Shown: positions 10,223-50,470 of the stretch, piece after piece
How the letters are laid out: each line of letters starts with the position of its first letter
How positions within the stretch are numbered: the first letter of the stretch is position 1
Position numbers and translations under genes: made by a program
Virus record (IMG/VR): IMGVR_UViG_3300034110_001237
Span: 64,001 to 128,000 of that record
Strand: one strand, 5' to 3'
DNA from: a virus
DNA: 64,000 nt
The notes under the pieces: model-generated
Databases searched by the model: none
The model's input: only the letters and a program-made list of their open reading frames with translations
Told to the model about the DNA's origin: nothing

Positions 10223-11308
10223 ATGTCTACGTTTAAAGCAACCGTTCTTTCAGTCATTGTTGAGCCACACCCTAACGCTGATGCGATTGAACTGGCTCGC
10301 GTTGGTGATTTCTTTTCGATTATCCAAAAAGGATATTTGAAAACTGGCGATTTGGCTGTCTATATCCCAGAAGGTGCCCTTGTCCCTGAATTCATTCAGG
10401 AAGAAGTGGGGTGCCTCGGTAAATTGGCAGGTTCCAAGAAAAATCGTTTGAAACCGTCTATGCTTCGTGGCGTGCTTAGCCAAGGTCTTTGCTTTAAGGC
10501 CCGTGAAGGTTGGGAAATTGGTGATGATAAAGCCGAAGAATTGGGTATCGTGAAATATGAGGCTCCTATTCCAGCTTCTATGAATGGTGAAATTTCTAAC
10601 GTAGGCATTGAAAACACTTTCCACTTTGACATTGAAAACGTCAAACGCTACCCTGATGTGTTGGTTGAGGGTGAAGAAGTGTCGATGACTGAAAAACTGC
10701 ACGGTACTTTTACTATTGCAGGTAGTGTGTATGGTAAAGCTCCAATTCCACACACTGTTAATGGTCGTTCTTTTGTGAGTAGCAAAGGATTCTTTAACAA
10801 AGGTTTGGTGCTTCGTGATAACGAACAAAATGCTCATAACATTTACATTCGTGTAGCGAAGAAGTTTAATCTTTATGACATTACGGCTATCCTTTCAGAC
10901 CGTTACAAAACTAACGCTTACATTTCGGGTGAAACGTTTGGTGCTGTTCAAGATTTGACTTACGGTCTTGAAGCGGGTGTGTTCGATTTCCGTGTGTTCA
11001 ATGTGTTCCTTGGTAATCGTAGCGAAGCAAGTGGTGTGTTCCCAGTGAACGATGATGTATTAGAAGAAATTCTTGCTGAGTTCGACTTGAAGCGTGTTCC
11101 AGTGCTTTACAAAGGGCCATACAGTAAAGAAGTGATGTTGAAATATACGGATGGATTTGAAACCTATTCAGGCAAAGAAACACACATCCGTGAAGGTTTG
11201 GTTATTGAACCACTTGTTCAGCGTCGTGACCCAACCATTGGGCGTGTTGTCTTGAAAAGTGTTTCAACTGCTTACTTGTCGCGTAAAGGTGGCACTGAGC
11301 TTAACTAA
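10223..11308 (+). CDS. RNA ligase, DRB0094/Rnl5 family (N-terminal OB domain + adenylyltransferase)
   Basis: N-terminal PHPNADAIELARV..GDLAVYIP; motif I TEKLHGT; GETFG; FDFRVFNV; motif IV REGLVI; motif V VLKSVS..YL. Confidence 0.9.
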   Translation: MSTFKATVLSVIVEPHPNADAIELARVGDFFSIIQKGYLKTGDLAVYIPEGALVPEFIQEEVGCLGKLAGSKKNRLKPSMLRGVLSQGLCFKAREGWEIGDDKAEELGIVKYEAPIPASMNGEISNVGIENTFHFDIENVKRYPDVLVEGEEVSMTEKLHGTFTIAGSVYGKAPIPHTVNGRSFVSSKGFFNKGLVLRDNEQNAHNIYIRVAKKFNLYDITAILSDRYKTNAYISGETFGAVQDLTYGLEAGVFDFRVFNVFLGNRSEASGVFPVNDDVLEEILAEFDLKRVPVLYKGPYSKEVMLKYTDGFETYSGKETHIREGLVIEPLVQRRDPTIGRVVLKSVSTAYLSRKGGTELN

Positions 11309-13931: not shown

Positions 13932-14362
13932 TGACTGATATTGTTCCTTTACTACCACAACTTGTCCATACACCTGATATTGTTAAAGCCATTGATACCA
14001 TCACTGGCTTGATTTCTCAGGTTAAATCAGCCGATGATCTTTTTTCAAAAAAAGACATCATCGACAGAGCACCAGAACTTGATTATCGTATGCATTATGA
14101 GAAAAAACTGCCTAATGATATGTTATTTATTCCTATTCCTTTTGAAATACTCAACATCTCAAACGCTGAAATTGAAGTCGTTAAACGCTACTTTGAGATT
14201 AGATCTGGTATCGTTTTTTCAATCAAGCATATTAAAGTGAAGCATGTTTATAATCATTGTATTGGATTCTCAATGGATGTTTTGTATCCGTCATCAGAAA
14301 AAGCAGAGAAAATTGAACCGATTAAAGCAGTAGCTAAGATTCCAGTAAAAAAAGGTAAATAA
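13931..14362 (+). CDS. hypothetical protein
   Basis: TGATG coupling with upstream gene, 143 aa. Confidence 0.75.
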   Translation: MTDIVPLLPQLVHTPDIVKAIDTITGLISQVKSADDLFSKKDIIDRAPELDYRMHYEKKLPNDMLFIPIPFEILNISNAEIEVVKRYFEIRSGIVFSIKHIKVKHVYNHCIGFSMDVLYPSSEKAEKIEPIKAVAKIPVKKGK

Positions 14363-14390
14363 AAACCCCGCTCTTTCGAGCAGGGCTTTC
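14361..14390 (-). terminator. intrinsic terminator, strongest on minus strand
   Basis: Minus strand GCCCTGCTC-GAAA-GAGCGGGGT-TTTT. Confidence 0.7.
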
Positions 14391-14605
14391 GGAATGAGGT
14401 AAGATTGGCGATGAATTGCCGATAAAGATATCTTATGATCCCCGCAATAAGACGGCCCTTGGTGGCTATAATATTGCTGGTTACTTTTTACAACTCCCTT
14501 CCAGAATAACCACGACCAGTTAGGATGTTAGATTTTATATTAATACTGTCGATGAGGAAAAAACCTTCGAGACGCAAAAAACCTTTCGCACAGTGAATTT
14601 TTTTT
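14365..14605 (-). ncRNA. candidate sRNA
   Basis: ~240-nt non-coding, GC-richer segment with a TATACT -10 upstream (14617-14622, minus) and a strong terminator. Confidence 0.35.
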
Positions 14606-23725: not shown

Positions 23726-23895
23726 AAATTAACCCTCAAATAATCGATTATTTTACTTTATGGATGATAAAAAGTCAATGTTTTATGTTATTTTCATTTT
23801 ATTTCTTTGTTTTTAACTTTTTCATGATTAAAACGTTGCTTTATAGGCTCTATTTTGGTACAATATCGGAAATGAAAACAACGGAGATACACCAC

Positions 23896-25050
23896 ATGTC
23901 AATTTTTCCAACTATTCGCCATATTGACGACATCTTGCCAGCTTTGGTTGGTAAAGATTACATCGGTATCAACAAGCAATCTAACGGTTCGACTGTTATT
24001 TGCTATAACATCAGCAATGCTGAAGGTTTTGCTACGTCTTTTGAAAAAGAGTGTCGTGGTATTACTTTCAACCGCGATGGTAAAATTGTCTCCCGTCCTT
24101 TGCATAAGTTCTTTAACTTGGCAGAGCGTGAAGAAGTCTTGCCACAAAACTTGAATTGGGATGATGTTGTTGCTGTCTTCGATAAAATGGATGGTTCTAT
24201 GATTACGGGTGGTGTATTCCACGGTGAAGTCTTCGTAAAATCTAAAAAATCCTTTGAATCGGATGTGGCTGTCTCTGCTTTGGCTTATGTGAAAGCAAAC
24301 CAGAAATATTACGATTTCATCAAGCATTGTGCTAATGTAGATTTGACACCAGTTTTTGAATATACGTCGCCAAATAACCGGATCGTATTGCGTTACGATG
24401 AAGAAAAAATGACTGTGTTGCATGTTCGTCATAACATCACTGGTTTATACCATACTCCAGATGAAGTGGCAGCATTGGCGAAGTCTTTTGACATTCCAGT
24501 GAACGCACCATTGTTTGGTAAAGGCTTTGATTTGAAAGCATTGTTGGAATCTTTGAATACTGTTGAAGGAATCGAAGGTTATGTCATTCAGTTTAAAAAC
24601 GGCGATATGGTGAAAGTCAAAACTCGCTGGTATGTAAACTTGCACCATGCTGTTACTTTCGTGCGTATCCGTGATATTGCTCGTTTGGTATTGTCGGAAA
24701 AAATTGACGACTACATTGCATTTGTTGCTTTGAATGCACCAGAAGCCGATTTGACTCAAATCCATCATATCAACGACACTATTAAAGGTGAAATTGAAGG
24801 AATCAAGAAAGAAGTTGATACAATTTTGGCTCAGCATCAAGGTGCAGATTTCAAAACGTTGGCAACTACTTACTTGGGGCATCCATACTTCTCTTTCATC
24901 ATGACCACTGCTCGTGGTAAAGAAGTGGATTATTTGGACTACTACGAACGTAACCGTTTGAAAGAAGTTTGGTCTTTGGAGCAAGTGGATTTGGGTGACT
25001 TCACTGGCACCGACGAATCAGACGAAGAAGTTCAAGTAGACGAAGAGTGA
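23896..25050 (+). CDS. RNA ligase, T4 Rnl1 (RnlA) family
   Basis: ECRGITF..DG.IVSRP.HKFFN; motif I DKMDGS; FEYTSP.NRIV..Y; motif IV EGYVI; motif V VKVKT.WY; RBS GGAG before ATG 23896. Confidence 0.9.
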   Translation: MSIFPTIRHIDDILPALVGKDYIGINKQSNGSTVICYNISNAEGFATSFEKECRGITFNRDGKIVSRPLHKFFNLAEREEVLPQNLNWDDVVAVFDKMDGSMITGGVFHGEVFVKSKKSFESDVAVSALAYVKANQKYYDFIKHCANVDLTPVFEYTSPNNRIVLRYDEEKMTVLHVRHNITGLYHTPDEVAALAKSFDIPVNAPLFGKGFDLKALLESLNTVEGIEGYVIQFKNGDMVKVKTRWYVNLHHAVTFVRIRDIARLVLSEKIDDYIAFVALNAPEADLTQIHHINDTIKGEIEGIKKEVDTILAQHQGADFKTLATTYLGHPYFSFIMTTARGKEVDYLDYYERNRLKEVWSLEQVDLGDFTGTDESDEEVQVDEE

Positions 25051-49137: not shown

Positions 49138-49240
49138 GCGGATGTGTGAGCGTAATAGGAGAGTTGGCCGTCCGTCCTTGAATAAAGGTTGCTCTACTGT
49201 TGTATTGGTAACGTAGGTTCAAATCCTACCATCTGCACCA
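49138..49240 (+). ncRNA. tRNA-like RNA (Leu-like acceptor) with non-canonical D/anticodon region
   Basis: GCGGATG/CATCTGC-A-CCA, GTAGG-TTCAAAT-CCTAC; 103 nt; no canonical anticodon arm. Confidence 0.7.
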
Positions 49241-49288
49241 AATTTCTTGATTGTTGTGATGGCTTGTGGTATAATCATCACATCAAAC

Positions 49289-49452
49289 GAATTAGGAGCC
49301 TTCGTCAAAGAAGGTTGGATAGCAGCGGTGTCGCGGGCAAGCTATCAAGAAAGGTGAGAAATACTCCCTTTCATAGTAACAAAGTCCATCAGGGTGCTGT
49401 TTGCCTTGATTAAAACGCTTAGGTGAAGCGGTTCTTTGTTACGAACTTATTT
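49289..49452 (+). ncRNA. multi-stem structured RNA, copy A
   Basis: Own TTGATT-N17-TATAAT promoter; stems covary with copy B. Confidence 0.75.
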
Positions 49453-49521: not shown

Positions 49522-49581
49522 AGACCAATTTTAAAGGTTGTTATTTACAGGTAATTGATGTATAATAACTTCCAGTTAAAC

Positions 49582-49750
49582 GAATACGGAGCAGCAGTTA
49601 AATGTTGCTGAATGGTAGCGGTGGTCGGGCGAGCCATTGTGTGAAGGGGAGGTGATTTCTTAGTCCCTCTCTTAGCAACAAGGGAATTAAGATGTTGTTT
49701 GTCTTGATTAACACGGTTGGGTGAACCGGCCCTTGTTGCAAACCTTATTC
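49582..49750 (+). ncRNA. multi-stem structured RNA, copy B
   Basis: Own TTGTTA-N17-TATAAT promoter; stems covary with copy A. Confidence 0.75.
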
Positions 49751-49784
49751 CAAAGAGTTGTCGATGACAGCTTTTTTTGTTTTA

Positions 49785-49960
49785 TGCCCTATAGTCTAAT
49801 GGATAATCATTGACAGACTGACAAATTAGTCAGAATCATTCAGGTTAAACTGAATGTGAAGTTGAAAATGGTAACTTTTCGGTTCATGCAAAACCGAAAA
49901 GGAGGACGCCACGTATGTATGTTGGTGGAGATGCAGGTTCGATTCCTGCTTAGGGTACCA
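49785..49960 (+). ncRNA. tRNA-Glu-like scaffold with ~96-nt multi-hairpin insertion in the D loop
   Basis: GCCCTA/TAGGGT-A-CCA, D stem GTCT..GGAC, CCAC/GTGG stem, GCAGG-TTCGATT-CCTGC. Confidence 0.75.
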
Positions 49961-49983
49961 ATTTAATGAATGTGGAGATTATC

Positions 49984-50196: not shown

Positions 50197-50212
50197 TGGG
50201 ATACCTTTTTAT

Positions 50213-50265
50213 TGGTGAATACTCAATTTATTGAGGTCGTAGGCTAATCCCTTCTTCACCAGCCA
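50213..50265 (+). ncRNA. 53-nt tRNA-like RNA lacking the anticodon arm
   Basis: TGGTGAA/TTCACCA-G-CCA, TA, CTCAA-ttta-TTGAG, GTC, degenerate T arm GTAGG-CTAATC-CCTTC. Confidence 0.55.
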
Positions 50266-50268
50266 GAT

Positions 50269-50379
50269 TTGCTGTAGGCTCTTGTAGCCTGTCCGACCGG
50301 GTTGTGACCGGGCAGTACCAGACGGTACCCATTTAGGTGGAGTCAATAAGGCGTAGGTAACTGGTTCCTATTGCAGCAA
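50269..50379 (+). ncRNA. candidate multi-branched structured RNA
   Basis: TTGCTGTA/TGCAGCAA closing stem with several internal hairpins, GC-rich. Confidence 0.55.
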
Positions 50380-50470
50380 TGATATTATTAACACTATTGA
50401 GAGAATATTATGCCGACATATGAAAAAATCTGGACACGATTATAAAATGTTAACCCTAGGAGGGTAAATT

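Follow-up and report, generated by a model that had tools for sequence, protein, structure and literature searches.

A cassette-borne candidate for a non-decoding tRNA-like RNA with a tRNA-Arg-type scaffold in a large phage

A 176-nt element at 49785-49960 of the window (the whole 64,000-nucleotide stretch analysed here, positions 64,001 to 128,000 of IMG/VR record IMGVR_UViG_3300034110_001237) is best read as an accessory, non-decoding tRNA-like RNA gene which would have descended from a T4-type phage tRNA-Arg-like gene and would be processed in the manner of a tRNA, a reading in which we place about as much confidence as doubt. A tRNA-scaffolded RNA domain had already been proposed at this position in a sequence-only reading of the same DNA. 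The anatomy fits that proposal, which underlies our best reading, but the tRNA-Glu scaffold and the enclosing D stem that came with it did not survive closer inspection. The IMG/VR source record is 161.7 kb long with a CheckV completeness estimate of 50%, and carries phage virion genes together with T4-type ligase genes. The letters and coordinates given earlier for the element were correct when the window was re-read, and its parts are collected in Table 1.

Table 1. Parts of the cassette and the terminator that precedes it, in window coordinates.
Feature	Position	Strand	Basis
Hairpin and T-run terminator of the upstream structured RNA	49752-49784	+	promoter at 49538-49566
Whole indel cassette: tRNA-like RNA and 12-nt AT-rich trailer	49785-49972	+	comparison of contigs with and without it
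Acceptor stem, 5' strand, of the 7-bp closing stem	49785-49791	+	fold; pairs with 49951-49957
D-like hairpin	49794-49814	+	5' half of the tRNA-Arg D arm (GTCT AATGGATAA) pairs with the first 8 nt of the insert
Insert, ~96 nt relative to phage tRNA-Arg genes	49807-49902	+	homology
Insert hairpin 2, CTGAC/GTCAG, 6-nt loop	49818-49833	+	MFE fold
Insert hairpin 3, CATTCAG/CTGAATG, 7 bp	49837-49856	+	fold
Predicted single-stranded linker, 18 nt, between hairpins 3 and 4	49857-49874	+	fold; invariant in all variants
Insert hairpin 4, CTTTTCGGTT/AACCGAAAAG, 10 bp	49875-49901	+	fold
Anticodon-arm remnant	49907-49927	+	two possible readings, neither with a 7-nt loop and U33
Canonical T arm, GCAGG-TTCGATT-CCTGC	49933-49949	+	sequence; loop TTCGATT
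Bulged U49950 (C in L056), acceptor 3' strand (49951-49957) and CCA (49958-49960)	49950-49960	+	

Both the sequence and the fold of the 176-nt element confirm the closing acceptor stem, T arm and encoded CCA that had been described. The predicted RNA has a free energy of -56.2 kcal/mol, which corresponds to z = -5.2 against dinucleotide shuffles (0/200 folded as well), the acceptor pairs have probabilities of 0.74-1.0 and every stem is perfect, all of which favours our best reading. Under energy models that ignore tertiary contacts, the structure is a junction of six hairpins which the acceptor stem closes, namely the D-like hairpin, three insert hairpins, the anticodon-arm remnant and the T arm. 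Homology to tRNA-Arg would put the mature 5' end at G49786 (G1.U72) and makes A49957 the discriminator; in this register the 5' acceptor strand is one nucleotide short. Because of the nucleotide missing relative to tRNA-Arg, U49950 is either bulged or forms a U.U seventh pair, and the acceptor stem consists of six regular pairs plus this irregularity.

The middle of the element departs further from what had been supposed. A D stem of the form GTCT/GGAC around the insert has a pair probability of 0.001, and forcing it costs 4.7 kcal/mol; the preferred structure is a local hairpin, GTC-T-AATG/CATT-GAC, with a pair probability of ~0.94. The earlier placement of the insert in the D loop thus stands by homology, which puts it at the boundary of the D loop and D stem, but the predicted fold does not enclose it. 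Hairpins 3 and 4 of the insert were recovered as previously drawn, whereas GACTGA/TTAGTC is replaced in the MFE structure by hairpin 2, and an AAGTT/AACTT hairpin is present in the G97T variant only. The anticodon loop, as the sequence-only reading had seen, is replaced by a longer sequence: this forms either a 12-nt loop that holds a (TATG)2 repeat and is closed by CCAC/GTGG, or an extended, bulged stem of 8 bp with a 4-nt loop. The stretch 49898-49953 also contains a strong Shine-Dalgarno-like AAGGAGG, 9 nt 5' of an ATG at 49915 which opens a 12-codon frame to a TAG at 49951-49953 and overlaps the anticodon remnant and T arm. The sole change within this frame, T49950C in the most divergent copy of the element (L056), is synonymous, and the frame with its AAGGAGG is probably due to chance.

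Judged by its sequence, the scaffold belongs with T4-type phage tRNA-Arg and not, as had been suggested, with tRNA-Glu. We scanned IMG/VR for the exact D-arm 15-mer TAGTCTAATGGATAA followed by a T loop at tRNA distance, with isotypes assigned by ARAGORN. All 19 of the tRNAs that matched were tRNA-Arg, as were additional D-arm matches in tandem tRNA clusters, and this result favours our best reading. Five of the 19, which are tRNA-Arg(CCG) genes, also share the identical 20-mer GATGCAGGTTCGATTCCTGC covering the variable loop and T arm. Several of the matched genes have G1.U72 together with A73, and tRNA-Arg of T4 itself has the same G1.U72, A73 and D loop TAATGGATA as the element, again in favour of our best reading. 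In a comparison with 264 phage tRNAs, the top isotypes were Arg and a long-armed 'Ile(tat)' type, and Glu ranked low. The descent of the element from a tRNA is, as judged from these matches, beyond chance. It departs from tRNA-Arg in three respects, namely the missing 5' acceptor nucleotide, the 12-nt loop with (TATG)2 and the ~96 nt that follow the D loop. The IMG/VR phages with matching tRNA-Arg genes have no proteins in common with this phage, and the phage's own tRNA-Arg(CCG) was rejected as a parent because it is of another type. The 'tRNA-Ile(tat)' genes are phage genes of 90-96 nt with long variable arms (IMG/VR sequences L028, L029, L031, L033 and L039). The gene in L029 has its 5' end in common with the element (TGC.CCTATAGT.TAATGG) as well as 26/29 nt of the 3' end, and it also has acceptor mismatches.

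ARAGORN makes no call at 49785-49960, with or without its intron mode, nor in tmRNA mode; what it does call is a tRNA-Leu(TAG) and a tRNA-Cys in the window and, outside it, a tRNA-Arg(CCG) in the same record. With gathering thresholds applied, Rfam reports only the same two window tRNAs, tRNA-Leu(TAG) and tRNA-Cys. In a permissive scan RF00005 scores 18.3 bits, compared with a gathering score of 29, over the 3' part 49893-49957 only, and other Rfam families gave sub-threshold hairpin matches only, for example to plant miRNA precursors. Among the features of a canonical tRNA, the element has the acceptor stem, a TTCRANT-type T loop and the discriminator with CCA. It lacks a 5-bp anticodon stem with a 7-nt loop and U33, for which the best forced register gives A33 and two mismatches. 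We read the element as non-decoding because neither ARAGORN nor Rfam calls it and because its spliced form, considered below, is still defective.

Searches for relatives beyond this phage group returned no homologue in IMG/VR, JGI metagenomes, GTDB genomes or GenBank phages, which counts against our best reading. Exact-pattern scans of IMG/VR for the element's 5' and 3' ends gave no match, and JGI metagenomes gave none either to the D arm joined to the first part of the insert or to the anticodon and T arms together. Neither a canonical-ancestor pattern nor the neighbouring virion protein was found in GTDB genomes; GenBank phages yielded generic T-arm matches only, and scans for tRNA-Arg D arms with inserts of other sizes yielded tandem tRNAs only. 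Neither its own record nor the sister record holds a further copy of the element or a sequence from which the insert could have come, and nothing similar to the 96-nt insert turned up elsewhere in the searches made. We also looked for an antisense target and found no complement of at least 11 nt in the whole 161-kb record, the 18-nt linker at 49857-49874 included, a further point against our best reading.

Two neighbours of the element, a protein of 607 residues and the 70-codon gene on its downstream side, served to gather related contigs from IMG/VR, ENA and Logan; samples that hold the phage are of the sewage type. The cassette is carried by 14 other contigs from 14 samples, in which it is 96-100% identical and free of indels, and this favours our best reading; it is wholly missing from 20 contigs of three sister lineages with flanks 84-93% identical, and this counts against it. 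At the empty sites there is a spacer of 4-25 nt, with the same terminator and the same ribosome-binding site on either side. Since contigs with and without the element differ by all of 49785-49972, the polymorphic unit is the whole cassette, which is confined to one sub-lineage of the phage group and is dispensable in the three sister lineages. The upstream flank of the carriers forms one clade (support 95/92), sister to the type represented by G001, and the downstream flank is a mosaic among contigs. The spacers of two empty lineages (L010-L025), CCATGATAGTCTAGTGATTTTT and ATTCCATGTTAGTGTAGTTATTTTT, bear a weak resemblance to the ends of the element (p = 0.035 for the 5' end and p = 0.14 for the 3' end), and such spacers may be deletion scars of an ancestral tRNA-like gene. 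One ENA contig (L046, 773,483 bases as assembled) holds the island at 100% identity to the window, the sister type sits in contigs of 1.86 Mb (as assembled) holding P0001/P0005, and IMG/VR labels these records proviruses.

The variation among carriers is limited and points in more than one direction. The most divergent copy (L056) has 7 substitutions, of which 5 are unpaired and 2 preserve pairing (A-U to G.U and G.U to A-U). No predicted pair is broken, an outcome with a chance of 0.045 for random changes, and this favours our best reading; in hairpin 3 of this copy two loop changes and one A-U to G.U change leave the stem in place. The G97T variant, found in at least five contigs, breaks one G-C pair of insert hairpin 4, and another copy (L063) has two pair-breaking changes, C4A and G17T. 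Over all variants 3/10 substitutions break pairs, which is approximately the neutral expectation and counts against our best reading; selection on structure is therefore not claimed. The same applies to the divergence of L056, which at 3.7% in the element and 7.5% in the flanks gives only a borderline difference (p = 0.06), and to compensatory double changes, of which there are none among variants that are too few for a covariation test. The flanks of the carriers have diverged by up to ~7.5%, with gaps, and the copies of the element are without indels; recombination mosaics can explain stretches of identity. Segregating sites per 100 nt among carriers amount to 5.3 in the element, 3.0-7.0 in the neighbouring RNA genes found in all lineages and 10.8 in the adjacent ORF.

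The element begins 8 nt after the end of the terminator of a promoter-driven, structured RNA of ~200 nt. This interval leaves no room for a promoter of its own, a point against our best reading, and transcription would therefore come only by read-through. On the other side, 24 nt separate the end of the element from the start codon of a small conserved ORF of 70 codons. The whole lies in an RNA island of 1.7 kb which holds several odd RNAs, the element among them. Another of these, at 49138-49241, is likewise tRNA-like: a non-tRNA body with GAGCGTAATAGG is framed by a canonical acceptor stem of 7 bp, a T arm and ACCA. All four lineages retain this RNA; its changes preserve pairing and are mostly one-sided, one of them being compensatory, and in two lineages one of its arms has an extra hairpin of 19 nt. 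By analogy, this RNA may serve as a same-island precedent for reading the element as tRNA-like. Two copies of a structured RNA of ~165 nt (49289-49452 and 49582-49750) each stand behind a TTG-N17-TATAAT promoter; the second has its terminator just 5' of the small ORF in the relatives, or of the element here, in a leader- or riboswitch-like arrangement. Neither copy has an Rfam match, T-box included, and a T-box identity for the upstream leader was rejected on this ground and because its GGGTG lies in a hairpin loop rather than in an antiterminator bulge. Directly 3' of the small ORF, a small closed-stem RNA ending in ACCAGCCA (50210-50268) is followed by a GC-richer multi-hairpin RNA (50266-50385), both with unexceptional fold energies (z about -0.9 and -0.7, respectively).

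From these observations we propose a scheme in which the element would use the enzymes of tRNA maturation and not those of translation. Read-through of the weak terminator (49752-49776) would give a single precursor shared with the structured RNA upstream and the 70-codon gene downstream. The features read by tRNA-processing enzymes appear to be retained, with an acceptor stem stacked on the T arm, U-1/G+1, A73 and CCA. RNase P would cut between U49785 and G49786, the AU-rich trailer would be cleaved, and trimming would halt at the CCA to leave a stable RNA of ~175 nt. Decoding would have been lost with the missing 5' acceptor nucleotide and the conversion of the anticodon loop to a 12-nt loop or an extended stem. 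With the ~96 nt after the D loop would come three perfect hairpins and a single strand of 18 nt that does not vary, and this hairpin array could be the working part, for example as a binding platform or decoy. A stronger and more tentative version of this idea, which is possible and no better than that, is a natural tRNA scaffold: the acceptor, T arm and CCA of the tRNA-Arg would form a shell that serves only to excise, CCA-cap and stabilise the 96-nt hairpin array by way of host enzymes, the array would act in trans, perhaps as a decoy or sponge for a tRNA-targeting defence nuclease, and the 1.7-kb island would hold several tRNA-shelled RNAs of which the element is one. The phage has an Rnl1-type tRNA-repair ligase as well, which may be mentioned beside the defence-decoy reading.

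The sequence-only reading had offered a protein-spliced intron as its other explanation, according to which the 96-nt insert would be cut out by a protein endonuclease and the halves rejoined by an Rnl1- or Rnl2-type ligase to give a working tRNA; this now seems very improbable. It was right about the ligases, since the phage encodes both an Rnl1-like enzyme (23764-25050; resembling T4 Rnl1, phrog_562, E = 2e-73) and an Rnl2-like enzyme (10223-11308; phrog_968), with a third and weaker RNA_ligase match at 14009-14482 of G000. Deletion of 49807-49902 also leads ARAGORN to call a tRNA-Thr(TGT), at a relaxed threshold only. However, the cloverleaf produced by such splicing would be defective, with a U.U seventh acceptor pair, A33, an anticodon stem of three pairs and two mismatches, and one nucleotide instead of two ahead of the D stem. 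A scripted scan found no bulge-helix-bulge (BHB) motif with bulges at ~49803-49809 and 49897-49907, and relaxed BHB motifs overall were not in excess (63, compared with 65.9 in shuffles). The splicing endonuclease family PF01974 reaches 13 bits only, in a frame with three internal stops in this ~50% complete record, and RtcB was not found in the record. Group I introns in tRNAs have a self-splicing core of >200 nt and usually lie in the anticodon loop; the insert here is ~96 nt long and follows the D loop, and there is no Intron_gpI match even at E values up to 10. Insert-less alleles of the scaffold, which had been named as a check, were sought among the homologous contigs and none was found: among the related contigs examined it is the whole cassette that is polymorphic. 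With neither a BHB motif at the junctions nor a credible splicing endonuclease in the record, and with no group I core and no insert-less allele to be found, the intron reading lacks support.

The other alternatives do without splicing. The element might be a neutral pseudo-tRNA relic, in which an acquired tRNA-Arg-like gene lost its function through the deletion of 1 nt, slippage to (TATG)2 in the anticodon loop and an insertion rich in hairpins, and has since drifted and been deleted in most lineages. This is the main rival and a serious one, which we hold to be possible though less probable than our best reading. Three independent defects relative to a tRNA, the 20 related contigs without the cassette, the scar-like empty spacers, a share of pair-breaking substitutions at the neutral expectation and the want of a promoter of its own all speak for it. 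Against drift, all seven helices are still perfect and the fold is better than shuffles by 5 standard deviations, no indel has entered any of the 14 copies although the flanks carry gaps, the diversity of the element is not above that of the neighbouring conserved RNA genes, and phage genomes rarely keep 188 nt of junk. We consider it unlikely that the cassette is instead a cis-acting module for the downstream 70-codon gene, one that would make the ORF independent of the leader by means of an internal promoter or of a processing site for RNase P or RNase E. Its place would suit such a role, exactly within the 5' UTR, after the leader terminator and ahead of the ribosome-binding site (49974-49977); the tRNA-like processing signals are intact, and a promoter-like TTGACA-18-AATCAT with a perfect -35 lies inside the insert (49810-49839). 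The relatives nevertheless express the same ORF without the cassette, the -10-like hexamer is weak and altered in L056 (A49834G), and neither role needs 96 nt of perfect hairpins. Finally, a scar left by attachment or recombination, where a mobile element that integrates into tRNA genes joined tRNA halves of different origin, would account for an indel whose 5' end is nearest to tRNA-Arg D arms and whose acceptor and T arm are nearest to the long 'tRNA-Ile(tat)' of L029. This origin is most unlikely, given that neither an integrase gene nor any other gene of a mobile element lies next to the cassette, that its acceptor strands are mutually complementary, that five tRNA-Arg(CCG) genes have the D-arm and T-arm sequences together, and that there are neither target-site duplications nor terminal repeats.

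The non-decoding tRNA-like RNA that we prefer has partial counterparts in known systems. T4 species 1 RNA (rnaC, NC_000866 70908-71046) resembles the element in its canonical T arm and acceptor-like closing stem, in the extra hairpins that replace the D and anticodon arms without leaving a decoding loop, and in an Rfam tRNA-clan score below threshold (17.5 bits for rnaC and 18.3 bits for the element). It also adjoins a tRNA-Arg, and the element has a tRNA-Arg-type scaffold. The body architecture of the two nevertheless differs, with matches of only 7-9 nt at the T loop and the tRNA-Arg D loop, and rnaC lies within a tRNA operon whereas the element is preceded by a terminator and forms part of the 5' UTR of a small ORF. 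T4 rnaC is a gene of the stable-RNA type, and the likeness supplies no mechanism for the element. T4-type phage tRNA-Arg shares with it G1.U72, A73, CCA, the D loop AATGGATA with A20, a variable loop of the form NGAT and the T arm; the element differs in having no anticodon loop, being 1 nt short in the 5' acceptor strand and carrying 96 nt more after the D loop.

Closest in setting are the oversized pseudo-tRNAs of the Lak megaphages, which have 'enigmatic introns' with conserved inserts (Devoto et al., bioRxiv 10.1101/356790). Like the element, these are tRNA-shaped, overlong RNAs of a large phage which go uncalled at bacterial settings, have near-identical inserts across distant samples and show presence/absence polymorphism between related genomes. 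In Lak the polymorphism concerns the insert only, and a recognisable tRNA is left once the insert is taken out (bioRxiv 10.1101/356790), whereas here the insert is conserved at 96-100% but the whole cassette is polymorphic and removal gives no sound tRNA. This phage also differs from Lak in showing no sign of stop-codon recoding, which when considered here brought no gain in open reading frames. The non-canonical BHB introns of archaeal tRNAs include ones at D-loop positions, and the insert likewise falls at the D loop/D stem by homology; the element differs in lacking a junction BHB and an EndA-like endonuclease and in coming from a bacterial virus. YrlA-type Y RNAs and tmRNA, too, join tRNA-like acceptor and T-arm modules to other domains, as the element does, although it has no Rfam match to YrlA or tmRNA, no ARAGORN tmRNA call and no Ro60/TROVE gene in its record. 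The engineered tRNA scaffolds of Ponchon and Dardel reportedly place a foreign structured RNA inside a tRNA shell, which tRNA enzymes process and stabilise; their payload is said to replace the anticodon stem, and the natural one of the element lies between the D and anticodon arms.

Non-decoding phage tRNA look-alikes have been known for about 50 years, since T4 species 1 RNA, and recur in huge phages. To our knowledge, none has an assigned function. The element described here has natural alleles with and without the cassette in phages that are otherwise 91-99% identical, an unusually clean fold and a defined payload, and therefore suits a direct functional test. If it is only a relic, it would still illustrate the decay of phage tRNA genes, and in either case it cautions against labelling oversized tRNA-like genes as 'intron-containing'.
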